64,000 nucleotides of DNA from Patescibacteria group bacterium (GTDB taxonomy: Bacteria; Patescibacteriota; Minisyncoccia; Phycocordibacterales; UBA12079), in assembly GCA_018817595.1 (NCBI GenBank), contig JAHITU010000007.1:8775-72774 (forward strand), read 5' to 3'. Made by a program: the position numbers and the translations under genes. Positions 11,730-63,846 of the stretch are shown piece by piece. The notes below the pieces were generated by a model. That model had not been told where the DNA came from. It made no database searches and worked only from the letters and a program-made list of their open reading frames with translations. Numbering within the stretch: position 1 is the first letter of the stretch; each line of letters starts with the position of its first letter.

Positions 11730-11961
11730 AAATGATTAGGGGTCGTTCCTCTTAATAAAGATAATTGTAATCTTTAGGCAAAAATTAAAAAGCTAAGATA
11801 ACCGAGGTGCGACCCCTAATTTAAATTTTAAATTATGAAGTCCGATTTCTGTCTGCCCCTGCGCGCCGGCAGGCGTGGGCATAGGCAGGGGTTGGGGTGT
11901 TCAAATGGCTAAAACCTTAATAATAAATAGCCCAACCGGTTGGGCTATTTAATTTACTTCA

Positions 11962-13160: not shown

Positions 13161-13338
13161 TGAATATATTTTAACATATTATATCCCACCTCTTTTTATT
13201 TTATTTGTTGATAAATGCCATACTAGTCCAATCGATTGGAATATTCCAATCGATTGGACTATTTTTTTGTTTATTATTTTGTTTACTTTTTTAATTTTAA
13301 TATTTCTGCTAATATTATAGTAACGCACAACCTCATAA

Positions 13339-13417
13339 CGTCTCTGCGAGGAAGCCTGCACTATTTTTGAAAATTAGAATTTTCAAAAATAGTGCTGGGT
13401 GACGAAGCAGTCCAGAG
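13339..13417. repeat. MITE-like repeat CGTCTCTGCGAGGA-[hairpin]-GACGAAGCAGTCCAGAG
   Basis: Conserved termini. Internal 18-bp hairpin GCACTATTTTTGAAAATT/AATTTTCAAAAATAGTGC. Confidence 0.55.
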
Positions 13418-13633
13418 TTATAAGCAAGCGATTTTTAATGAAAATGTTTTTAAATTATAACAAAAGAATAAATTCAGCTTCAAAAAGCCCTAAACCTTTA
13501 AGCAAAAAGGTTTAGGGCTAATTCCAGACTCGGAAAATTGTTAATTAATAAGCCAACGGAAAAGAGTTTGAGAAATTTGCAAAGAAAATTTCTCCCTAAC
13601 AACCTAATTCCTAAAAGCTAACCTACTAAAAAA

Positions 13634-15223
13634 ATGTTAGATATAAAATTTATAAGAGATAATAAAGAAGCTGTGCAAATGGGTGCTAAGAAAAAGCACA
13701 TTGATTTTGATGTAGAAAGATTATTAAAAGTAGATGATGAAAGAAAAGGAGCAGTGGCTTCTGTGGAAAGACTTAGAACTGAACAAAATATAATTTCAGA
13801 CAGAGTAGCCAAAACAGAACAATTTGCTCAAAAGGAATTGTTGATTGAACAATCTCAAAAACTAAAAGCCGAATTACAAAAATCAGAAGAGGAATTGAAA
13901 GACATAATGAATCGTTGGAAATTATTGATGCTACAAGTGCCCAATATTCCAGATATGTCAGTGCCAGAAGGAGAGTCAGATGAAGAAAATCAAGAAATCA
14001 AAGCTTGGGGAGAAAAAACATCTTTTGATTTTGAAGCCAAAGACCATGTTCAAATTATGAATGATTTGGAAATGGTAGATTTTGAAAGAGGAACAAAGAT
14101 TCATGGATTCAGAGGTTATTATCTTATAGGAGACGGAGCCAGACTTTCTTGGGCTATTTGGAATTATGCCAATGACTTTTTTGGAGCCAAAGGTTTTGTT
14201 CCAATGATTCCTCCTGCTATTGTGCGAAAAGAAAATCTTTATGGAACAGGACATTTACCTAATGATGCTGATGATGTTTATCAAACTCAAGACGAAGACT
14301 ATTTAATTGGAACAGCTGAAATTCCAGTAACAGGTTTCCATTCAGGAGAAATTTTAAAGGATACAGATTTACCTAAAAAATATTTAGGATTTTCTCCTTG
14401 TTTTAGAAGAGAGGCTGGAAGCCACGGCAGAGACACCAAAGGACTTATCCGAGTAAATGAATTTTTTAAAGTAGAACAAGTTATTCTGTGTGAAGCCAGT
14501 CACGAAGAGTCAGTTAAATGGCATGAATGGATAAATAGAAATACAGAAGAATTTATTGAGTCTTTAGGGATTCCTTATCATACAGTGATTAACTGTGGAG
14601 GGGACCTAGGACAAGGTCAGGTTAAAAAATACGATGTTGAATTATGGGTTCCAGGAGAACAAAAATATCGAGAAATTTCTTCAGCTTCATATTTTCATGA
14701 TTTTCAAGCCAGAAGATTTAACATTCGCTATAAGAAAGGCGAGGAGAAGGCCAAGTATGTGCATACTCTGAATTGTACTGCTATACCAACTCCTAGAATT
14801 TTAGTTTCTTTAGTGGAAAACTTTCAACAAGCTGATGGCTCTGTAAAGATTCCAGAAGCTCTTCAAAAATATATGGGAGGAAGAGAAGTAATTAAAAAAG
14901 AAATTCTTGAAGATAAAAAAGAAAAAATCGAAGAAAAACCTGTGCTTGATAATGAAGATATTCAAACCACTCAGCCAAAAGTTGTCGAAGAAATAACTCA
15001 AGAACAAAAACCTTTTGTAGAAGAACCAATTCAAAGACAGAAACAAGTAGAAATTCAAGAAAATAATACTGAAGAAAAACCTGTGTTTGATAATGAAGAT
15101 ATTCAAACAACTGATTTTGTTCAACAAAATCCGTCTATTGAAGAAGTCGAACAAACTCCAAATATAGAATTACCAATTCAAGAGGAAAATAAACCAGAAG
15201 ACTCAGAACAACTAAGATATTAA
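13634..15223 (+). CDS. serS: seryl-tRNA synthetase with repetitive acidic C-terminal extension
   Basis: N-terminal coiled-coil arm and class II core. About 110 extra C-terminal residues carry the direct repeats EEKPVLDNEDIQTT / EEKPVFDNEDIQTT. Confidence 0.9.
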   Translation: MLDIKFIRDNKEAVQMGAKKKHIDFDVERLLKVDDERKGAVASVERLRTEQNIISDRVAKTEQFAQKELLIEQSQKLKAELQKSEEELKDIMNRWKLLMLQVPNIPDMSVPEGESDEENQEIKAWGEKTSFDFEAKDHVQIMNDLEMVDFERGTKIHGFRGYYLIGDGARLSWAIWNYANDFFGAKGFVPMIPPAIVRKENLYGTGHLPNDADDVYQTQDEDYLIGTAEIPVTGFHSGEILKDTDLPKKYLGFSPCFRREAGSHGRDTKGLIRVNEFFKVEQVILCEASHEESVKWHEWINRNTEEFIESLGIPYHTVINCGGDLGQGQVKKYDVELWVPGEQKYREISSASYFHDFQARRFNIRYKKGEEKAKYVHTLNCTAIPTPRILVSLVENFQQADGSVKIPEALQKYMGGREVIKKEILEDKKEKIEEKPVLDNEDIQTTQPKVVEEITQEQKPFVEEPIQRQKQVEIQENNTEEKPVFDNEDIQTTDFVQQNPSIEEVEQTPNIELPIQEENKPEDSEQLRY

Positions 15224-15520: not shown

Positions 15521-16516
15521 ATGTTAAGAAAATTTAGATCAGAAGAAATTGCTAAAAAACATAAGAGAATTTTTTGGTTAAAATTCACCTTGTTTTGGAT
15601 TTTGTTGTTCGCTTTGGTTTATTCACTTTCCTATGCTTCTAAACAAGAAAAAATAAATATTCAGAATATAAATATAAACGGAAACAAAGTAATTCAAGAA
15701 GAAGAAATCCTAAAAATAGTAAACGAAAATTTAGAAGGTAATTATCTATGGTTGTTTCCTAAATCAAATATTTTTATCTACCCAAAATCTAAAATAAAAG
15801 AAGATTTATTAAATTCTTTTTTGAGGATAAAAGAATTAATGGTGACTTTTAATGATTTACAAAGCATAGATATAAATATAGAAGAAAGAACCCCCTTCGC
15901 CTTATATTGTGAAAAAAAAGACACTAACTTGGCAGTTGAACTGCCAAGTGAGGAATTAGAGCAAAATGATGAAATAAATAATGAAATTAATAATGAAATA
16001 GCTACTTCAACTAATTTCGCAACCAAGTTGCCAAATGATTCGGGTTTTGTCGATTTAGGAGAAATAAATGAAGAAGAATGTTATTTTATGGATAATGAAG
16101 CTTATATTTATGCAAAAGCAATGAGCTTTACCGATGATGTTTACTTTAAATATGAACAGGAATCATTAAAAACAAATAACTTGGGGGTAACACTCCCAAG
16201 TGATGGTAGAATATTAGGAAGAACTTATTTATCAGAATCTCCAGAAAGACATTTTGAAAAAATAAATTTATTTATTCGTTTTTTGAAGGATATTAATATC
16301 GATGTTTATAGATTGTTAGTAAAAGAAAACGGAGACTATGAACTAAGTTTTGATAATGGTTCGTTATTAATATTTGATGAAAAACAGGACTTTGATGTAT
16401 TATTAGAAAATCTCCAAGCCGTATTAATAGATCTTGGAGATTTAGAAGATAAAAAATTCGAATATATAGATTTAAGGTTTGATAATAAGGTACTCTATAA
16501 GTTTAAAGAGAAATGA
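15521..16516 (+). CDS. ftsQ: FtsQ/DivIB-like cell-division protein (POTRA)
   Basis: N-terminal TM, POTRA-like INIQNINIxGNKVIQEEEI segment, beta-rich C-terminus. Confidence 0.6.
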   Translation: MLRKFRSEEIAKKHKRIFWLKFTLFWILLFALVYSLSYASKQEKINIQNININGNKVIQEEEILKIVNENLEGNYLWLFPKSNIFIYPKSKIKEDLLNSFLRIKELMVTFNDLQSIDINIEERTPFALYCEKKDTNLAVELPSEELEQNDEINNEINNEIATSTNFATKLPNDSGFVDLGEINEEECYFMDNEAYIYAKAMSFTDDVYFKYEQESLKTNNLGVTLPSDGRILGRTYLSESPERHFEKINLFIRFLKDINIDVYRLLVKENGDYELSFDNGSLLIFDEKQDFDVLLENLQAVLIDLGDLEDKKFEYIDLRFDNKVLYKFKEK

Positions 16517-16941: not shown

Positions 16942-18102
16942 ATGATATTATCAAAAAATAATAAAATATGCAATATGTCAAATTTTTGGAAAAAAATAAA
17001 AGAAAACAAAAACTCCTCCTTCGCTGAAGCTTCGGCGAACAGGCCTTTTTTTGCATTGGCACCAATGTTGGATGTGACTGATTCGGCTTTTAGAGAAATA
17101 GTGGCTAAATATGGCAAACCAGATGTTTTGTGGACTGAGTTTGTTTCTTGTGATGGTATGTGTTCTGAGGGAAAAGAAAAATTAATGCACCTTTTGCATT
17201 ATACAGAAAAACAAAGACCGATTGTGGCTCAATTATTTGGGTCTAATCCAGAAAATTTTAAAAAAACTGCTCGCATTGTGGCTGAATTAGGATATGACGG
17301 AATTGATATAAATATGGGTTGTCCTCAAAAAACTATTCTTAAACAAGGAGCAGGGGCGTGTTTAATCTCCACTCCAGATTTAGCTCGAGAAATTATTAGA
17401 GCCACCAAGAAAGGAGCAGGGGATTTACCTGTGTCAGTCAAAACTAGAATTGGATATAAAGAAGACACATTAGAAGAATGGTTACCTGTAATTATAGAAG
17501 AAAAACCAGTGGCTATTACTGTTCATGGAAGGACTCAAAAAGAAATGTCTCAGGTGCCTGCTCGTTGGGATAGAATTAAAAAAGCAGTAGAAATGGCAAA
17601 AGGAACTGGGATTATAATGATTGGAAATGGAGATGTTAAATCTATTGAGGAGGGAATTGAGCGAGCCAAAGAATCAGGAGTGGACGGAGTAATGATTGGT
17701 CGCGGAATCTTCGGCAACCCATGGTTATTTAGTAGAAAATGCGGACAGGACGCTGATATATACAGAATTAACGCGGAAAAATTTGTAGGTACCGAGTACC
17801 TACAAATAGATAATGACTTGGACACCGGGTGTCCAAGTATTGAAGAAAAGTTAGGGGTTTTGATTGAACATATCGAATTGTATGAGAAATATTATGCTAA
17901 AGAATACAAAGAAGGGGATTGGGTCTTTAAGTCTTCTCGCTCTGATGGGCGAATAAAACCTTTTAATATGATGAAAAAACATATAGGAGCTTATGTAAAA
18001 GAATTCAAAGGAGCCAAAGAGCTAAGAATGGAATTAATGGAAACAGAAAGTGAAAAAGAAGCGGTAGATATTTTAAAAAAATATCTAAGATTTAAGATTT
18101 AA
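16942..18102 (+). CDS. dus: tRNA-dihydrouridine synthase
   Basis: ALAPMLDVTDSAFR FMN-binding TIM-barrel signature and catalytic Cys region. Confidence 0.85.
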   Translation: MILSKNNKICNMSNFWKKIKENKNSSFAEASANRPFFALAPMLDVTDSAFREIVAKYGKPDVLWTEFVSCDGMCSEGKEKLMHLLHYTEKQRPIVAQLFGSNPENFKKTARIVAELGYDGIDINMGCPQKTILKQGAGACLISTPDLAREIIRATKKGAGDLPVSVKTRIGYKEDTLEEWLPVIIEEKPVAITVHGRTQKEMSQVPARWDRIKKAVEMAKGTGIIMIGNGDVKSIEEGIERAKESGVDGVMIGRGIFGNPWLFSRKCGQDADIYRINAEKFVGTEYLQIDNDLDTGCPSIEEKLGVLIEHIELYEKYYAKEYKEGDWVFKSSRSDGRIKPFNMMKKHIGAYVKEFKGAKELRMELMETESEKEAVDILKKYLRFKI

Positions 18103-22012: not shown

Positions 22013-23363
22013 AGAAATAACAGAAAAAATAATAACACGATTACCTCCATCACCTACGGGTTTGTTTCATATCGGAACTGCTCGAACAGCTTTGTTTAAC
22101 TATCTTTTTGCTCGCCAGAACAATGGACAAATGCTTTTTCGTTTGGAAGATACAGATAAAGAAAGATCAAAAAAGGAATTTGAAGTAAATATTATTTCAG
22201 GATTAGAATGGTTGGGTCTAGATTATGATGGAGAAATCACAAAACAATCTGAAAGAACAGAAGTTTACAAAAAATATTTAGAAAAAATGATTGAAGGTGG
22301 GTTAGCGTATATTTCAGAAGAAGAAATAAAAAAAGAAGGTCAAAGAGGTTCTGTTATACGTTTTAAAAATCCAAATAAGGAGGTTATTTTTAAAGACTTA
22401 ATAAGAGGGGATGTAAAATTTGATACCACAGAATTAGGTGATTTTGTAATTGCTAAGTCTTTGGAAGAACCTCTTTACCATTTAACAGTGGTTGTGGATG
22501 ATTTTGAAGGTGAAATAACCCATGTTATTAGAGGAGAAGACCATATTTCAAACACTCCTCGACAAATTTTAATCCAAGAAGCTATCGGAGCAGAAAGACC
22601 TATCTATGCTCACCTGCCTTTGATATTGTCACCAGACAGATCAAAAATGTCTAAAAGACACGGAGCTACTTCCGTTGATGATTACAAGGAAAAGGGATAT
22701 TTGCCCGAGGCTATTATTAATTACTTGGCTTTAATGGGTTGGAATCCAGGAACAGAAGAAGAGATTTTTACTTTGAGTGAATTACTAGAAAAATTTGATA
22801 TCAAAAAAGTAAACAAAGGTGGAGCAATCTTTAACATCGAAAAATTGAATTGGATAAACAAAGAACATATCAAATTAATGCCAGAAGAGGACTTCAAAGA
22901 AAAAGTTTTGGAATTTTCTTCAGAAGAATTAAAAGAAAAATTTGTAAAATACCCTCGAGTTTTTGAAGAGATATTACCAATCATAAAAGAAAGAATTGAA
23001 AAATTTGAAGATGTCACAAAGATGTGTACTGATGGAGAATTTGATTATTATTTCTTTCAACCAGAATACGAGTTAGAAAAAATATTTTGGAAAGATGAAA
23101 ATGATCCATTCGTACTCCGACTACGAATGGAAAAAATTATAGAAATATTAAATTCCGTAGGAGAATTTACAGCTGAAAAAATTAAAGAAGCCCTTTGGGA
23201 TTATGCGACCGAAGAAGGAAGAGGTTCTGTATTATGGCCTTTGCGATACCTTTTGTCAGGCAGAGATAAATCTCCAGACCCTTTTACCTTGTCAGAAATT
23301 TTAGGAAAAGAAGAAACTATCAAAAGAATTAACTATGCTATTGAAAAAATTCAAAAATCTTAA
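21996..23363 (+). CDS. gltX: glutamyl-tRNA synthetase
   Basis: Class I HIGH-like PTGLFHIGTARTALFNY and KMSKRHG (KMSK) motifs. Confidence 0.9.
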   Translation: MNKMNKEITEKIITRLPPSPTGLFHIGTARTALFNYLFARQNNGQMLFRLEDTDKERSKKEFEVNIISGLEWLGLDYDGEITKQSERTEVYKKYLEKMIEGGLAYISEEEIKKEGQRGSVIRFKNPNKEVIFKDLIRGDVKFDTTELGDFVIAKSLEEPLYHLTVVVDDFEGEITHVIRGEDHISNTPRQILIQEAIGAERPIYAHLPLILSPDRSKMSKRHGATSVDDYKEKGYLPEAIINYLALMGWNPGTEEEIFTLSELLEKFDIKKVNKGGAIFNIEKLNWINKEHIKLMPEEDFKEKVLEFSSEELKEKFVKYPRVFEEILPIIKERIEKFEDVTKMCTDGEFDYYFFQPEYELEKIFWKDENDPFVLRLRMEKIIEILNSVGEFTAEKIKEALWDYATEEGRGSVLWPLRYLLSGRDKSPDPFTLSEILGKEETIKRINYAIEKIQKS

Positions 23364-24663
23364 AAAAACAACCTTTTGGAAATACTATGTCCAAATGGTT
23401 TGTGTGATTTTGTTTGTGGGATTAATTTTCCCTTATGGTTTTAGTAATGCTGCTGATATAGAAGAATTGAAATCTAAAATAACAGAAAAGTCTAACGAAA
23501 TGCAGAAACTAGAACAAGAAATTCAAAAATGGGAAGGTGAATTAGAAGTAGTCGGAAAAGAGAAAAAATCATTAAATAACGAAATCTATTATCTTGATAC
23601 CACTGAAAAAAAATTAAAAACAAATATTAATTTAACTAATAATCAAATTTATAGTACTAGTCTAAAGATTGAAAAGTTAGGTATAGAAATTGATGAAAAA
23701 GAAGATGGGATTGAAAAAAATTCCAAAGCCTTAGCCGAAGCAGTTCGTTCTATTCACGAACAGGAATCCTATACTATTTTAGAAACAGTTTTAAAAAATA
23801 AAACAATGTCAGATTTTTGGAATGACTTAGAAGGTTTGCAGAAAGTTCAGTCAGAAATTCAAATAAAAACCAACGAACTTAAAAAATTAAAAGAAGGATT
23901 AGAAACTGATAAAAAAAGTTCAGAAATTCAAAAAAATAATCTATCAAATTACAAAGTTGAGTTAGATGACAGAAAAGTGATAGTAGAAAACACAAAAGAA
24001 GTTAAAAATGAATTATTAGAAGATACTAAAAACAAGGAATCAAATTACCAAAAGATTTTAGCTGAAAAGTTAGCTTTGAAAAAAGCTTTCGAAGCCGAAT
24101 TGGCTCAGTACGAAGAGGCTTTAAGAATAGCTGTTGATCCTCAAAGTATTCCAAATGCCAATAATACTATTTTGGCTTGGCCTCTGGATTCTATCCGAAT
24201 TACTCAATATTTTGGGAATACTCCCTTTGCCACACAGAATCCACAGGTTTATGGTTCAGGAAGTCACAATGGAATTGATTTTGGAGCAAGTACAGGAACA
24301 AAATTAAAAACAGCTTTAAGTGGAATCGTTACAGCTACAGGAAACACCGATGCAGATTGCCCCGGAGCTTCATACGGTAAATGGGTTTTGATTAAACATA
24401 ATAATGGACTTTCAACTCTGTATGCTCATATGTCATTAATTAAAGTAAGTTCTGGGCAAACTGTAGTAACGGGGGATACTATTGGTTATACGGGAAATAC
24501 AGGCTATTCAACAGGACCTCATTTACATTTTACTGTTTATGCAACTCAAGGGGTGAGAGTTCAAAATTATAATTTTAGATCCTGTTCCGGAAAGTCTACA
24601 ACAATGCCTTTAGCTCCTAAAGAAGCTTATTTAAATCCACTTTCTTATCTACCTGAATACTAG
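23335..24663 (+). CDS. M23-family peptidase with N-terminal coiled-coil (EnvC-like murein hydrolase activator/endopeptidase)
   Basis: Signal anchor, long coiled-coil, C-terminal M23 motifs HNGIDFGA and GNTGYSTGPHLHF. Confidence 0.8.
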   Translation: MLLKKFKNLKKTTFWKYYVQMVCVILFVGLIFPYGFSNAADIEELKSKITEKSNEMQKLEQEIQKWEGELEVVGKEKKSLNNEIYYLDTTEKKLKTNINLTNNQIYSTSLKIEKLGIEIDEKEDGIEKNSKALAEAVRSIHEQESYTILETVLKNKTMSDFWNDLEGLQKVQSEIQIKTNELKKLKEGLETDKKSSEIQKNNLSNYKVELDDRKVIVENTKEVKNELLEDTKNKESNYQKILAEKLALKKAFEAELAQYEEALRIAVDPQSIPNANNTILAWPLDSIRITQYFGNTPFATQNPQVYGSGSHNGIDFGASTGTKLKTALSGIVTATGNTDADCPGASYGKWVLIKHNNGLSTLYAHMSLIKVSSGQTVVTGDTIGYTGNTGYSTGPHLHFTVYATQGVRVQNYNFRSCSGKSTTMPLAPKEAYLNPLSYLPEY

Positions 24664-24902
24664 TCTTTTGACTTTAAGGACTTTCGACCTTATACTTGTG
24701 CATATGTTCGATCAAAAAAATCAAAAAAGAATAAAAATCGTTTGGGCAATTTTAGGAATACTAGTAGCAGTCAGTATGGTTCTCGTTTATATACCATTCT
24801 AAATTTTAGATTTTAAATTTAAAAATTTACTTTGTAAATTTTTCCTAACACCTAAACCTGCCTGCTGGCAGGCAGGTAGCTAACACCTAACAACCTAATA
24901 AA

Positions 24903-25298: not shown

Positions 25299-25463
25299 TA
25301 GAATAGTACAATGAGTCGAAAGTCTATAAAGCCTGCCTGCCGGCAGGCAGGTCCGTAAAGTCAAAAGTTATGAATTTTACTTTGTAAAATTCATTTTTGT
25401 CTGACGGCAAGTAATGGTTATAAAAAATTTTTTATATTAATAATTTAATAAAATATAAATAGT

Positions 25464-25701: not shown

Positions 25702-25733
25702 AAAAATACAGACACCCGGTGTCTGTATTTTTT
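25702..25733 (+). terminator. terminator hairpin ATACAGACACCCGGTGTCTGTAT + T-run
   Basis: Palindrome whose core GACACCCGGTGTC also occurs in the 59-61 kb leaders and inside dus. Confidence 0.6.
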
Positions 25734-26520: not shown

Positions 26521-26640
26521 CGTCTCTGCGACTCAGCACTTTGAATTTTATTACTTACCTTCTTATTATAAATAAATGTTTATTTACATAAACTTTGTTT
26601 ACATTGTTTTAACAAAGTGATGGGGAAGCAGTCCAGAGAA
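26521..26640. repeat. MITE-like repeat CGTCTCTGCGAC-TCAGCACTTTG ... CAAAGTGATGGGG-AAGCAGTCCAGAG
   Basis: Same termini as 13339 and 41033. Abuts the tRNA-Phe trailing element. Confidence 0.55.
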
Positions 26641-26645
26641 TTTAA

Positions 26646-40961: not shown

Positions 40962-41032
40962 CGAGTCGAAAGTCAAAAGTCCATAACCTGCCTGCCGGCA
41001 GGCAGGAGTCGAAAGTTAAAAAATTTTAATTT

Positions 41033-46906: not shown

Positions 46907-47263
46907 ATTGGCTCTATCGTCTAACGGTTATTGGAATTAAAAGCAAATTTCTTTGCTTTTAATCCGGTTCTGAGCGATAGCGAAGAAATGACCGATGTTT
47001 ACGAGGTCATAGGATAAGCCTTCGTTGAAGGCGATGTCTTTGAAATATAGCAGACAATGTTAATTTAAAATATAATATATAGTAATGGCCTTATCGTCTA
47101 ATGGTTATTGGAATTAAAAGCAAATTTCTTTGCTTTTAATCCGGTTCTGAGCGATAGCGAAGAAATGACCGATGTTTACGAGGTCATAGGATAAGCCTTC
47201 GTTGAAGGCGATGTCTTTGAAATATAGTAGACAATGTTAATTTAAAATATAATATATAGTAAT
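46907..47263 (+). repeat. two tandem 181-bp units, each starting with a copy of tRNA-Glu nt 1-22, directly upstream of the intact tRNA-Glu
   Basis: Units at 46907-47087 and 47088-47263 are about 98% identical. Each holds GGC(T/C)(C/T)TATCGTCTAA(C/T)GGTTA plus inverted copies of tRNA segments (GAAGGCGATGTC is the reverse complement of tRNA GACATCGCCTTC). Confidence 0.7.
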
Positions 47264-47335
47264 GGCCTTATCGTCTAATGGTTAGGACATCGCCTTCTCA
47301 AGGCGGCAATCCGGGTTCGATTCCCGGTAAGGTCA
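47264..47335 (+). tRNA. tRNA-Glu (anticodon CTC)
   Basis: Acceptor GGCCTTA/TAAGGTC, D-stem GTCT/GGAC, anticodon loop TTCTCAA, T-loop TTCGATT. Confidence 0.85.
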
Positions 47336-47518
47336 CAAATCAAAAATAACAGTCTTTCTGACTGTTATTTTTTGATTCTAGTGAATCTCCTGTGGAGATA
47401 ATCGAAGGTCGGAAGAAAATCCGAGATTTTCTGAGACGGGGTCGAGAACACTTTGTAAAATTTGAGCAAAGCGAAAAATTTTACTTAGTGATTCGTGATC
47501 GATTCCCGGTAAGGTCAC
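47336..47518 (+). ncRNA. conserved structured element trailing tRNA-Glu; ends in a direct copy of the tRNA 3' end
   Basis: Terminator, CGAAGGTCGGAAGAAAATCC...GAGACGGGGTCGAGAACACTTTG...TTTGAGCAAAGCGAAAAA...ACTTAGTGATTCGTGATCGATTCCCGGTAAGGTCAC. Confidence 0.6.
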
Positions 47519-47811
47519 AAAAAACAAAAACCTACACTTTATCGACCGTCAATAAAGTGTAGGTTTTTGTTTTGTTTTGCAAAAAGTAGGGGTAGCACCC
47601 CTACTTTTTAAATTATAAGATATTGTTGAAAAACTTCATAATTTCTTTATTTTTTCTTTACTGAAACTTCATAATAAATATGTATAAATTTGTAATTAGT
47701 GTGTTCTTACAGAAATGAAAGGAGGTGATATACTATTCTTTTGAGAGTTATCTTAGTAAATATTTTTTCACTAAATTTAAACCTAAATTAAAAAAGACCT
47801 AGGAGGTCAAA

Positions 47812-51748: not shown

Positions 51749-51954
51749 AAGAAAACCACCGAACCTATCCTTGCGGAACGCAGTGATAAACACTACAGTT
51801 TGGTTCGGTGGCACTTCCTTAATTGAAACTATAACATTTTATATCAAAAAATCAAGTAAACTGTGGATAACTAAAACATTGTAAATAAAATTTAAATTAG
51901 CTCTAAAAGAGCAGAACGGCTCAACGACTTGAGCTATTTAAAATAAATGAAAAT

Positions 51955-59010: not shown

Positions 59011-59220
59011 ATTTAATTATTTTAGTATTAAGTATTATGTAGTAAGTATTATGGAGGCCCGACTCCTGCTTATGGCAGGTTCAGGAAAATATTTTTCATC
59101 GTATGCTCGATACGACTCAAAATATTTTCCTGCTCTTCCTCGAACTGTATTCAATTTTGGGATTATTTAAAAAATTAAGCAATTAACTTTAAGGTCGGCA
59201 TTACCGACCTTTTTAAATTA

Positions 59221-59638
59221 TTCATTACAGCGCTCCAAGCGCTGTAATCATGTCGCAAAATTACTTGGACACCCGGTGTCCAAGTGGTTTTAATTTCTAG
59301 AAATTCTGATTGCGTCAAAATTAATCACAGTTCGCTAAAGGTGAACCATCTCTTTGAGCCTGTCCGTCTCAGATGTGGTGATAGCGAAACTATAACTATA
59401 GATGGTTACAAAATCAATCCAGAATCCATTCAACGAAGCAAGTCAGAAAATAATTTAAACTATTCCAATTGATTGGAATAGTTAAAAAATATCGCAAAAT
59501 TACTTGGACACCCGGTGTCCAATGATTCTAATTTTTAGAAATATTGATTTTTCTTGCTAATTCCTTAAATTTAATGTATAAAATCAACAGAAGTTTGGAT
59601 GAAAATTGAATAAATATTAAATAAAAAGGGGAGTAAAG
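59221..59638 (+). promoter_or_regulatory. conserved ~420-bp leader module, copy 1 (structured, with two palindromic operator-like sites overlapping promoter-like hexamers)
   Basis: Hairpin TTACAGCGCTCCAAGCGCTGTAA. ACTTGGACACCCGGTGTCCAAGT at 59263-59285 and 59502-59522. TTGGAC-17-TTTAAT geometry. Nearly identical to 60645-61106. Confidence 0.6.
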
Positions 59639-60592
59639 ATGAAAGCTTTAAAACCGAAAAGTTCAGAATTGTTTGTAGATTCTGTTAAAAGTAAAAAGGA
59701 ATGGATTATGAAAATAATTCTCTTTATTTTGGGAATTTTTATTTTGTTCTGTCTTTGGTGTGTCGGAACTGAGGCTGTGGCTGGAATAACCCAGCAAGAA
59801 ATAACCAATGACGGGGTAAACTCAGGAATGGGCGAAATCCCACAGATTTATAAAAAGGATGGAAAATTCTTTATTCATAAATCTCCAGCGGATATGGTTG
59901 TTGATGAGGCTCCAAAAGAATGGGGGATTTCGTCAGAAGATCAAGAGTCATTGGCTCTTGGTAAAAAGAGTTTTGTCTCTGTTTCTTCAAAGAAAATTGA
60001 ATTTATTTTTTGGGGAAAGTGGATCCCTGAAACCTTGACCGTTATTTACAAAAAAATAGTTAGAATTGAGGATGGAAAATTTTTTCTTTATCATCTTGAT
60101 CCTGTTATGGAACCTAAAATCCAATTTGTACTTCTAACCCTATCCTTCTTTGTCTTTAGTTGTGGTCTGGTTAATGGAAGATTTGCAGGTGTAAATAATG
60201 GTGGATTCTTATGGATTCCTCTTTTTTTATTAGGTCCTATAATTGTGTTGTTAATTATTTTCCTAATTCCATTAATTAATAAAATAATTTTAGAATTCGA
60301 AATTATTTTATTAGCAATTATTTTTTGTTTTATTTTATTATATTACTTATTCCATAAAAACAAAAAAAAAATAGTAACAACTAATGTAATTTCAATTTCA
60401 ATAATCATAATAATAATTGCAGTTTCATTTTTTTCTTGCAATTATTTACAGAATTTTTACTATTTTTTCCTTTTATATTTTCTTTCATATTTTATTTCTT
60501 TTTTCTTTACTCGAAGAAAAGAAGTAAAAGAAAAGAGGAAAGACATGAATTTTTCAAGAATAAGTGGAGTAGGGGGTTCTAAAAAAAATTAA
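59639..60592 (+). CDS. hypothetical polytopic membrane protein (paralog A)
   Basis: N-terminal signal anchor, soluble domain of about 110 aa, several TM helices. Paralog of the 61107-61877 product. Confidence 0.6.
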   Translation: MKALKPKSSELFVDSVKSKKEWIMKIILFILGIFILFCLWCVGTEAVAGITQQEITNDGVNSGMGEIPQIYKKDGKFFIHKSPADMVVDEAPKEWGISSEDQESLALGKKSFVSVSSKKIEFIFWGKWIPETLTVIYKKIVRIEDGKFFLYHLDPVMEPKIQFVLLTLSFFVFSCGLVNGRFAGVNNGGFLWIPLFLLGPIIVLLIIFLIPLINKIILEFEIILLAIIFCFILLYYLFHKNKKKIVTTNVISISIIIIIIAVSFFSCNYLQNFYYFFLLYFLSYFISFFFTRRKEVKEKRKDMNFSRISGVGGSKKN

Positions 60593-60644
60593 TCAGTGAA
60601 TACAACCCCAACCGGTGAGCCTTGTGCCCACCGGTTGTTTTATT

Positions 60645-61106
60645 TATTACAGCACTCCGAGCGCTGTAATCATGTCGCAAAATTACTTGGACACCCGGTG
60701 TCCAAGTGGTTTTAATTTATAGAAATTCTGATTTCGTCAAAATTAATCACAGTTCGCTAAAGGTGAACCATCTCTTTGAGCCTGTCCGTCTCAGATGTGG
60801 TGATAGCGAAACTATAACTATAGATGGTTACAAAATCAATCCAGAATCTATTCGTCTTTGAGAGGTGAATGGATTTTTGGTTTTTGTAAAAACCAAAAAT
60901 CCATTCAACGAGGCAAGTCAGAAAATAATTTAAACTATTCCAATTGATTGGAATAGTTAAAAAATGTCACAAAATTACTTGGACACCCGGTGTCCAATGA
61001 TTCTAATTTTTAGAAATTTAATATTTCTTGCTAATTCCATAAATTTAATGTATAAAATCAACAGAAGTTTGGATGAAAATTGAATAAATAATTTATAAAA
61101 AGGGGA
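60645..61106 (+). promoter_or_regulatory. conserved leader module, copy 2 (with a 52-bp hairpin insertion at about 60849-60906)
   Basis: >95% identical to 59221-59638. Palindromes at 60685-60707 and 60977-60997. Extra perfect inverted repeat GAATGGATTTTTGGTTTTTGTAAAAACCAAAAATCCATTC. Confidence 0.6.
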
Positions 61107-61877
61107 TTGAAGATGAAAACTTTAAAGTTTAAGGGCTCGGATTTGTTCGTGGATTCCATGAGAAACAACAAAAAAGTTTTGATAAAAACCTTTTTGATCA
61201 TACTGGGCTTGTTTATTTTATTTTGTATTTGTTGTGCTATTTGTGAAGCAAATGAGCAAGTATCGAATTTAAATCAGCAGGGGATTTTCTCTTCTGAAAT
61301 CTCTGAGGTTAAAAATGTTTTTAAAACAAGGACGGGGTGGGTAGTGTATAATGATTACCCTGACCAGGTTTTCATAGACCCTTTGGCCGATTGGGATTAT
61401 ATGAGAATTGATCCTAATTATCATAAAGAATTAAAAAAGGTAATCTTAGGCCAAGAAAGTTGTTATTCTGCCACTAAATTAAAAAGATATGTTGTTTTCT
61501 GGGGAAAATTAGTTCCGGAAGTGAGGAGTAAAACCATTTATCGAAAAATTTTTGTAAGGGATGGACAATGGGGTATTGTTGAATCTAATCCTTTTCACAG
61601 TAATGAAACCAATGCTTTCTTTTTATTGGTTCCTTTATTTGTGATTTTATTGGGAATTGTAACATGGATTTTTTTTAAGGATGACAGTCGAATAGGATTA
61701 TCGTTTTTTATATTGATAATTTCAGCTATGTCATATATTTTTAGTTTAGATTATTGGATGAACAGTTTATATTTTTTAATTTTTATTTCTTTGGGATTTT
61801 TCTTAGGCCTTCTGAACGAAAAGAAAAATAAAAAACCTTATTCAAAAACAGGCTCAACTCAAAGTGCTGAGTTGTAG
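61107..61877 (+). CDS. hypothetical polytopic membrane protein (paralog B)
   Basis: Same architecture as paralog A. The sequences are strongly diverged, unlike their leaders. Confidence 0.6.
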   Translation: MKMKTLKFKGSDLFVDSMRNNKKVLIKTFLIILGLFILFCICCAICEANEQVSNLNQQGIFSSEISEVKNVFKTRTGWVVYNDYPDQVFIDPLADWDYMRIDPNYHKELKKVILGQESCYSATKLKRYVVFWGKLVPEVRSKTIYRKIFVRDGQWGIVESNPFHSNETNAFFLLVPLFVILLGIVTWIFFKDDSRIGLSFFILIISAMSYIFSLDYWMNSLYFLIFISLGFFLGLLNEKKNKKPYSKTGSTQSAEL

Positions 61878-61920: not shown

Positions 61921-61990
61921 TGTTTTATTTATTACAGCACTCCGAGCGCTGTAATCATGTCGCAAAATCACTTGGGAATCCAATTTCCAA
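61921..61990 (+). promoter_or_regulatory. partial third copy of the leader 5' module upstream of dnaX
   Basis: ATTACAGCACTCCGAGCGCTGTAATCATGTCGCAAAAT + CACTTGGGAATCCAATTTCCAAGTG, a variant palindrome with the same arms. Followed by a TATAAT-like -10. Confidence 0.5.
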
Positions 61991-62046
61991 GTGGATTTAT
62001 TTTTGTAAAAATTACCTAATCTATTATTTTTTGATATAATATTTCC

Positions 62047-63136: not shown

Positions 63137-63207
63137 TGCCGGATCGTCTAATGGTAGGACACTGGTTTTTGGTACCAGCGATCGGGGTTCGAGTCCCTGT
63201 CCGGCAA
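63137..63207 (+). tRNA. tRNA-Gln (anticodon TTG)
   Basis: Acceptor TGCCGGA/TCCGGCA, D-stem GTCT/GGAC, anticodon stem CTGGT/ACCAG with loop TTTTGGT, T-loop TTCGAGT. Confidence 0.8.
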
Positions 63208-63612
63208 CTATAAAAATAAAGACACTAGAATGAATATTCTAGTGTCTTTATTTTTATTTGTCCGGCAGGGGCTCGAAAGACGAAGGCTGCGAAGCCAGTT
63301 TTTCGAAGAAAAACTGTAGCCGAGTCGGGGTCGCGAGTACTTATTATTTTTGAGTGCGAAGCACGAAAAAAATAATTAGTAACTCGTGACCGAGTCCCTG
63401 TCCGGCAACATATAAAATATAGACCCTAAAGCACTAGCTTTAGGGTCTATATTTTATTTGTCGGACAGGGACTTGAAACGAGCGAAATATATTTTTCTGA
63501 AGCGTTAGCGGAAGAAAAATTTGAGTGAGCAGGGTCGCGAGTTCTTAATAGAATTGAGTCCGTAGGACGAAAATTATATTTAGAACTGGAGACCGAGTCC
63601 CTGTAAAACAAC
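63208..63612 (+). ncRNA. two tandem copies of the tRNA-trailing structured element, each ending in a copy of the tRNA-Gln 3' end
   Basis: Copy 1 runs to about 63409 (…AATTAGTAACTCGTGACCGAGTCCCTGTCCGGCAAC). Copy 2 runs to about 63612 (…GAGACCGAGTCCCTGTAAAACAAC). Each has a terminator hairpin and an inverted TGTCCGGCAGGGGCTCG / TGTCGGACAGGGACTTG. Confidence 0.6.
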
Positions 63613-63846
63613 ATGATTAAATAACCCTAAAGCACTAGCTTTAGGGTCTATATTTAATATCCATCTACTATCACAGGTTCGAACCTGTGTGATGTTTAAT
63701 ATGGTTGGGTAGGGAATAGGTTTTGAAAACTAGTTAGTTAAAGAGAAATTATTGCATTAAATTTTAAAATGCGTTGCTATTTTTTTAGTAAGAGTGTATT
63801 TTATTAATAGATAGTTCGTTCAAATAAATCACTTAAGAGGTGTCCT

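Follow-up and report, generated by a model that had tools for sequence, protein, structure and literature searches.

The 64-kb window analysed here, a stretch of a 74-kb contig from a Patescibacteria genome, carries five exact copies of the palindrome TTGGACACC-S-GGTGTCCAA, four of them in the leaders of two membrane-protein genes and one in-frame in dus, the gene for a dihydrouridine synthase. This dyad, probably a protein-recognised site, represents in canonical form a family of short palindromes that can fold into hairpins, (A)C-TTGG-N5-N-N5'-CCAA-G(T). With a probability of roughly two in three, we regard this family as the cognate repeat of IS200-like Y1/HUH tyrosine transposases that form a Patescibacteria clade and are related to RAYT (the transposases associated with repetitive extragenic palindromic sequences, REPs), i.e. 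as one half of a REP/RAYT-type ("REPtron") system. A sequence-only reading of the window had taken the dyad for operator-like and proposed looking for a TetR/XRE-type regulator that co-varies with it; the partner gene is instead a Y1/HUH (IS200/RAYT-like) transposase.

The exact 19-mer TTGGACACCNGGTGTCCAA was found at 17818-17836 in dus, with a central G, and at 59265-59283, 59504-59522, 60687-60705 and 60979-60997 in the leaders, with a central C. An extension to ACTTGG...CCAAGT is present at the dus copy and at three of the four leader copies. The leader dyads had been placed correctly with their AC/GT extension, in the first and second leader at 59263-59285 and 60685-60707 (hereafter PalA) and at 59502-59522 and 60977-60997 (PalB); the extended dus copy spans 17816-17838. 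The palindrome exceeds chance: 0.01 matches are expected in the window with two mismatches allowed, and none of 100 shuffles reached five. Sites of the looser form TTGG-N11-CCAA number 11 against 0.58 expected, ten of them with at least three of the five inner pairs complementary, and family members beyond those listed earlier include the sites at 15929 (a perfect variant), 16181, 23376 and 61972. As a single-stranded oligonucleotide, the palindrome reads ACTTGGACACCNGGTGTCCAAGT.

The exact 19-mer was found in 62 other public loci, 18 from a genome collection (one genome per species, 596 Gb) and 44 from metagenomes, and eight of these 62 loci, all found by the palindrome alone, encode Y1 homologs (37–65% identity), most of them adjoined by a canonical copy. 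In two loci, L010 and L017, palindrome copies surround a gene whose product matches the Pfam family Y1_Tnp (IS200-like; E-values of 4e-9 and 6e-7). Members of the Y1 family are annotated as "transposase" or, by JGI, as "REP element-mobilizing transposase RayT", and the HUH motif and the catalytic tyrosine are conserved. The named matches come from many Patescibacteria lineages, and approximately 1,200 clusters at 50% identity match the Y1 profile at E <= 1e-30. The best match in the PDB to an AlphaFold model of the Y1 protein (pLDDT 85.5) was 4er8 (E-value 3.5e-5), which is the E. coli REP-associated tyrosine transposase (RayT) bound to a REP hairpin, and the next structural matches were the IS608 and ISDra2 TnpA proteins.

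The Y1 gene of 11 related loci carries the palindrome, or a variant specific to the lineage, at matching positions; all four copies or more are present in L010, L028, L030, L033, L070, L072 and L073, whereas L007, L017, L071 and L075 have two to three. The first hairpin lies approximately 25–35 nt upstream of the ATG, the second is in-frame approximately 180–230 nt into the gene and before the HUH motif, the third is in-frame just after the catalytic tyrosine (Y-V/I-N-L-N ... L-G-x-x-x-S-K), and the fourth coincides with the stop codon. Hairpins thereby flank the gene on both sides, before the ATG and at the stop or beyond it, in L010, L017, L028, L030, L033, L070, L072 and L073, and at least the upstream one is present in L007 and L071; the unit with hairpins at both ends measures approximately 0.75 kb. 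The variant is lineage-specific and largely uniform per locus: canonical in L010, L017, L028 and L030, TTGGACACGNAGTGTCCAA in L007, TTGGGTCCCCGAGACCCAA in L033 (three times, together with one canonical copy), TTGGAAACTWAGTTTCCAA in L072 and TTGGGAGYTSAACTCCCAA in L073 (four times each), TTGGGAGCTTAGCTCCCAA in L070, and GTGGAAGCCSGGCTTCCAC in L071, with one more copy in the neighbouring ksgA.

The in-frame heptad after the catalytic tyrosine was found in 91 of 114 close members of the Y1 family. Codons 3 and 5 can be reverse complements in 54 of the 56 distinct heptads (shuffle mean 32 ± 3.2, maximum 44), and the two internal heptads are identical within a Y1 protein and different between proteins. 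Model confidence is low exactly at the two hairpin-encoded peptides, which are likely loops in the predicted structure. At the start of the gene, the upstream copy provides a -35-like TGGACA followed, after 16–17 nt, by a TAnnAT ending 6–7 nt from the ATG (8 of 10 loci), an arrangement which suggests that the Y1 transcript may be leaderless and expressed from a self-regulated promoter. As the open reading frame (ORF) of the enzyme itself carries the putative recognition hairpins, it would offer a simple test case for the co-evolution of an HUH enzyme with its hairpin. UvrD-helicase, Y1 and ksgA follow one another in both L010 and L071, the Y1 proteins of which are only approximately 50% identical; this order in two lineages hints at vertical inheritance, and the Y1 gene contexts in other loci differ from it. 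In L073, the Y1 gene is located between dprA and serS, and the corresponding spacer of the window (13161-13633) is without Y1.

Sixteen of the 18 genome-collection loci are labelled as Patescibacteria or its candidate phyla (Taylor-, Vogel- and Saccharibacteria, Paceibacterota), and a single metagenome-assembled genome (MAG), CAYIMH01, has 16 copies on 10 contigs. By our own arithmetic, approximately nine chance matches to 18 specified bases are expected in 596 Gb, and single matches, e.g. that in Mucilaginibacter, may therefore be due to chance; the concentration in a small Patescibacteria group and the multi-copy loci cannot be. The 44 metagenome loci span GC contents of 25–62%. The DNA flanking the 19-mer is unrelated between loci, and the bases just outside it are usually mutually complementary in a lineage-specific manner (ac..gt, tg..ca, aaat..attt, caaaac..gttttg). 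A viral origin of the repeat was considered and rejected, as the exact 19-mer had no match in viral contigs. We found no paper containing the palindrome sequence, and none linking RAYT, IS200 or palindromic repeats to Patescibacteria.

More than half of the non-redundant copies (42 of 76, 55%) are situated well inside stop-free stretches of at least 150 codons, compared to 71% of random positions in the same loci. The in-gene copies use all three frames, giving the peptides LDTxCPS, GHxVSK and WTPGVQ, and the Pfam-verified host ORFs encode TsaD (twice), ArgRS, IleRS, UvrA, enolase, NAD-ligase (LigA), PGI, cysteine desulfurase and a GT4 glycosyltransferase; the copy in enolase sits in the interdomain linker. 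Within a gene or genome the palindrome variants are uniform, and between lineages they differ. This extends to the centre base, which is W in all 16 copies of CAYIMH01 and S both in all five of the window and in all seven of Ga0180007. In the closest relative of the window genome, TTGGGAATCSGATTCCCAA is found both in front of dnaX and within an FtsQ-type gene, two unrelated sites. Drift alone cannot account for identical copies at unrelated places in a single genome; the hairpins must be copied or converted from site to site, and we infer that Y1 itself does this. In the manner in which E. coli RayT recognises REP, the enzyme would recognise the repeat in the form of a single-stranded DNA hairpin; it would nick and rejoin the repeat, by which hairpins would be spread or overwritten; binding at the copy in its own promoter would autoregulate the leaderless transcript.

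The dus copy of the window (ACTTGGACACCGGGTGTCCAAGT, 17816-17838) reads D-L-D-T-G-C-P-S in an ORF at 16942/16975-18102 which is a clear member of Pfam Dus (E-value 6e-66), so that the earlier assignment of DTGCPS to this gene was right. Five relatives at 70–85% identity have different palindromes at the same codons: perfect 10+3+10 dyads in L074 (ACACGGGCACCGAGTGCCCGTGT) and L066 (ACTTGGACGTCGCACGTCCAAGT), 8 of 9 pairs in L068 (TTGGAAACTGGGTTTCCAA), and 7 of 9 pairs in both L067 (TTGGGCTCCGAGTGCCCAA) and L065 (GTGGAGATAGCATCCCCAC). More distant Dus proteins lack the palindrome segment. We see the copy as an in-frame hairpin resident in a linker that tolerates loops, and the idea that it is a one-off site for titrating a regulator has to be given up: it is one of many in-frame copies, and the site is old, relatives having different palindromes there. 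Directly 5' of the palindrome (17730-17810), the Dus protein of the window has a 26-residue insertion (RKCGQDADIYRINAEKFVGTEYLQIDN) that is absent in 15 of 15 aligned relatives and holds a GTAG...CTAC-ended hairpin of its own (TTTGTAGGTACCGAGTACCTACAAA); no other copy of this insertion was found in any fetched locus. The seryl-tRNA synthetase of the window (13634-15223) probably carries further in-frame insertions, being 529 aa long compared to 421–473 aa in relatives.

Two other genes of the window could be followed in the same way. An FtsQ-type POTRA gene (15521-16516) contains the perfect variant ACTTGGCAGTTGAACTGCCAAGT at 15927-15949, in-frame as N-L-A-V-E-L-P-S, and the ortholog in L074 has TTGGCAACCGGGTTGCCAA, equally perfect and differing from the window in three compensated pairs. 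The same gene contains a decayed variant, ACTTGGGGGTAACACTCCCAAGT, at 16179-16201 (in-frame N-L-G-V-T-L-P-S); the window shares this second segment (16181) with L066 and L074, and L065 and L068 lack it. At the N-terminus of an M23 peptidase gene (23335-24663), the variant TTGGAAATACTATGTCCAA (23376-23394) has 8 of 9 pairs, and the orthologous site in L065 is the perfect ACTTGGAAACCCGGTTTCCAAGTGG. Dyad symmetry has thus been kept by compensatory changes at the orthologous dus, FtsQ-type and M23 sites. Among 17 sites defined by position, pairing holds in 87% of cells, and double changes affect 8 of the 11 pairs; the cells with double changes number 31, compared to 11 ± 2.6 in shuffles, none of 500 of which reached as high. 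This covariation is compatible with either a hairpin or a dimer site.

Several observations weigh against a REP/RAYT-type system. Sequence searches (phmmer and profiles) linked the Y1 protein to no solved RayT or TnpA structure, only the fold search doing so, and the NCBIfam RayT equivalog scores the protein at 22–24 bits, with a cut-off of 80. Neither a Y1 gene nor a remnant of one was found by tblastn or HMM in the 64-kb window of the 74-kb contig; the Y1 of the window genome itself was not found, and the matching heptad was seen in Y1 proteins of other MAGs. Among a wider set of 102 representatives at 50% identity, only 20 have the heptad (16 of these 20 compatible with codon complementarity, against 8.2 ± 1.8), and the in-frame hairpins therefore mark a closer clade, not the whole superfamily. 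Few copies lie within ±10 kb beyond the Y1 gene at four Y1 loci. The listed copies are without the classical REP tags GTAG and CGTC, and half of the copies are intragenic, unlike classical REPs. No insertion polymorphism was seen between near-identical strains, and the orthologous sites, being old and stable, fit resident structures better than recent insertions.

The definitions used for REP/RAYT systems are those for E. coli RayT-REP and Pseudomonas REPIN-RAYT (PMC3116915, PMC5581495, PMC3733652). As in these systems, hairpin palindromes flank a Y1/HUH gene, the product of which has RayT bound to REP as its best structural match, and each lineage has its own repeat variant in dispersed copies with compensatory stem changes. 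REP hairpins have an unpaired GTAG (or CGTC) tag at one end (PMC3733652); the flanks here are instead NAC...GTN and themselves complementary. REP stems are imperfect, whereas the palindromes here are perfect with a one-base centre, and no obvious short-spacer doublets of the REPIN type were seen. REPs are predominantly extragenic, in contrast to approximately half of the copies here, although REPs inside genes have been documented too, with many in genes for DNA replication and repair (PMC3733652). Also unlike REP/RAYT, the transposase ORF itself has two in-frame copies at conserved positions, and one 19-mer is common to distant Patescibacteria lineages. At approximately 215–230 aa, the Y1 protein is longer than RayT, and it is too divergent for sequence matches to the solved RayT.

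The system can also be compared with IS200/IS605 elements (IS608 and ISDra2 TnpA). The Y1/HUH fold, the Pfam Y1_Tnp match, the hairpins at both gene ends and the unit of approximately 0.75 kb are shared; however, IS200/IS605 elements have distinct, imperfect left and right hairpins, whereas the same perfect palindrome is found at both ends here, and instead of multiple identical copies of a whole unit there is one Y1 gene per fetched locus. The UvrD-Y1-ksgA order in two distant lineages suggests that the gene may be resident. RAYT genes of the known systems are single-copy and vertically inherited (PMC5581495). The Y1 genes resemble autoregulated transposase promoters in insertion sequence ends in that the dyad covers the -35-like hexamer and the spacer. 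Rickettsia palindromic elements (RPEs) and other in-frame intragenic repeats, finally, also place palindromic DNA in-frame in loops or linkers of essential genes. RPEs are approximately 100–150 bp long and add 30–50 residues; the unit here is 19–23 bp, adds approximately 7–8 residues and has a linked transposase.

It is possible, if doubtful, that the hairpins are more than transposon debris and form a resident and actively maintained system, which could serve a genome-wide role in these minimal cells. A domesticated HUH enzyme would excise and replace the hairpin itself, or convert it, and would thereby preserve perfect 19–23 nt hairpins at set positions, among them codons in essential genes and in the gene of the enzyme. 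The hairpins could then be, for example, single-strand nicking signals for replication or recombination, or could provide global autoregulated control of transcription. If true, this would be the smallest known mobile or convertible DNA cassette.

That the hairpins are instead host elements selected as RNA or DNA structures (terminators, mRNA stabilisers, pause or processing sites), which the Y1 gene merely shares, we hold to be unlikely. The long-kept dyad symmetry at orthologous sites would agree with this, and REPs are known to act as RNA elements (PMC3733652). The hairpin ACAGACACCCGGTGTCTGT at 25708-25726 on the plus strand fits a clean intrinsic terminator (hairpin and T run). The core of the dyad had been said to form a terminator stem at 25711-25727, and the 13-nt core GACACCCGGTGTC is indeed shared; the hairpin is without the TTGG/CCAA ends and is a relative only, perhaps a diverged member of the family, and no ortholog of it was found in the fetched relatives. 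On the minus strand, GTAATTTTG comes directly after the leader copies, and PalB scores as terminator-like on that strand only. In-frame copies in the middle of essential ORFs, on the other hand, cannot be terminators, an exact 19-mer across genomes with GC contents of 25–62% is not required by structure alone, and the four-copy arrangement at the Y1 gene together with the within-genome uniformity points to a sequence-specific partner. Template switching at quasi-palindromes could preserve dyad symmetry without selection.

The leader copies belong to an interval between rnc and dnaX that holds two ORFan membrane-protein genes, 59639-60592 and 61107-61877, with products only 31% identical to each other. 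A single homolog of the membrane protein was found in the database, and it led to the syntenic contig of the closest relative (L069, GCA_018902735.1), with rnc, one membrane gene and dnaX. All four copies fall within a 325-nt block that is young or homogenised and precedes the membrane-gene promoters; it is located on the plus strand at 59218-59542 (325 nt) and at 60640-61017, the latter with a 52-nt hairpin insertion at approximately 60854-60905. Each block consists of hairpin H1 (59224-59248 in copy 1), PalA, approximately 220 nt, hairpin H2 (59458-59483), PalB and approximately 20 nt. The blocks are 95–97% identical, and the DNA 3' of them falls to 76%, from which it follows that the block is either much younger than the gene duplication or is being homogenised. 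No further copy of the block or of the segment between the palindromes was found in any fetched locus.

In leader 1, the arms of PalA (ACTTGGACACCCGGTGTCCAAGT) reach 59257-59291 (AAAATTAC...GTGGTTTT), and its DNA hairpin has a predicted energy of -11 kcal/mol (z -4.9). PalB of the same leader is ACTTGGACACCCGGTGTCCAA with the 5' flank TCGCAAAATTAC as in PalA, the two units being direct repeats of approximately 60 nt with this common flank. A decayed third unit with the flank of the PalA and PalB units, ACTTGGGAATCCAATTTCCAAGT (61970-61992; flank GTCGCAAAATCAC), lies approximately 65 nt upstream of the inferred transcription start of dnaX, and the corresponding unit in L069 is a perfect palindrome of other sequence, CACTTGGGAATCCGATTCCCAAGTG. 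The strong fold z-scores of the PalA-PalB segment come mostly from PalA pairing with PalB, and Rfam searches of the leaders at gathering and E-value thresholds gave noise only. A small ORF in the segment (59284-59472) has no family match and no ribosome-binding site, and is truncated differently in copy 2. PalA and PalB are spaced by 239 nt, similar to the 225 nt between the first two Y1-gene copies, which prompted a search for a Y1 remnant between them; neither tblastn nor a 120-sequence HMM run on the six-frame translation found one.

These leaders were the basis for the operator reading, in which the dyad would be a double-stranded site of a dimeric transcription factor controlling the two membrane genes and dnaX, with in-gene copies incidental or titrating. 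We regard this as quite improbable in the form proposed, and the operator reading as supported in part only. The dyad is perfectly symmetric, a dimer on double-stranded DNA would also make the half-sites co-vary, and, in our own reading, copies are at approximately -65 to -77 relative to the starts inferred for dnaX and membrane gene 1. The proposed overlap of the dyads with promoter hexamers was borne out at the Y1 gene itself and, with weaker geometry, in the leaders, where -10-like hexamers follow TGGACA after 16–17 nt (TGGACA-17-TTTAAT and TGGACA-16-TCTAAT). A conserved promoter-like element is, however, situated downstream of PalB: TTGCTA-17 nt-TATAAA, preceded by TG, at 59554-59582 on the plus strand, which we infer to be the promoter of membrane gene 1, with a second copy at 61028-61056. 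L069 retains this element and the 5' untranslated region and is without the PalA/PalB block, and a standard sigma-70 scan gave no promoter overlapping the dyads of the window. A repressor operator overlaps the functional promoter of its gene and co-occurs with a cognate regulator; here no regulator gene adjoins the leaders, 55% of the copies are intragenic in essential genes, and the only gene co-occurring with the repeat is the Y1 transposase. Locally, the leader copies may be bidirectional hairpin/T-run elements or weak promoters with Y1-type geometry, and may act secondarily as terminators, insulators or weak promoters.

It is hardly credible that the palindrome is an uptake signal by which self DNA is marked for competence, a machinery that Patescibacteria rely on, since its lineage-wide occurrence, its presence in genes in all frames and sometimes in terminators, as with uptake sequences, and the proximity of dprA to the Y1 gene in L073 and to the Y1-less spacer of the window are set against a low density (five copies in the 64 kb here and hardly any near four Y1 loci), variants that differ between close relatives, and a strong positional link to a transposase gene, not to competence genes.

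Patescibacteria, also known as the candidate phyla radiation (CPR), have tiny, streamlined genomes that are generally held to be poor in repeats. A lineage-wide system of hairpins and Y1 enzyme would explain the odd inserts of 7–8 residues (LDTxCPS, GHxVSK, WTPGVQ) in essential CPR proteins and would offer markers for strain typing. It is also a possible cause of assembly breaks, because many Y1 genes are found on contigs of 1–3 kb. For annotation, the case warns against reading such dyads in CPR leaders as operators.

Other repeats were seen in and beyond the window. A motif of the form CGTCTYTGCGAGG...(variable hairpin)...GACGAAGCARTCC, which looks like another small structured repeat, is intergenic at 13340-13415 and 60850-60920 of the window and at 2815-2845 and 3975-4070 of L069. 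Dyads of CCAATYGATTGG lie in the H2 hairpins of the leaders (59458-59483 and 60933-60958) and have a doubled copy in the dprA-serS spacer (13225-13262). A second palindromic repeat that is conserved, CCTGCCTGCCGGCAGGCAGG, is present in the window at 25331-25352, 40986-41007 and, with one mismatch, 24858-24875 (3–4 copies compared to 0 expected), and is found exactly in four loci of other organisms (L024, L034, L068 and L070), one of them labelled Campbellbacteria. Three short non-coding segments (11730-11821, 26521-26645 and 47083-47529) are 85–91% identical to the metagenome contigs L034 (in three places) and L024, from organisms that are otherwise diverged. Tandem repeats of approximately 200 nt at 63137-63660 start in the 3' part of a tRNA (63137-63207), each repeat comprising the 3' end of the tRNA and a hairpin. 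Lastly, a match to the Rfam family DUF3800-IX RNA above the gathering score was found on the minus strand at 51751-51812, just downstream of a gene annotated as DUF3800 in L063.

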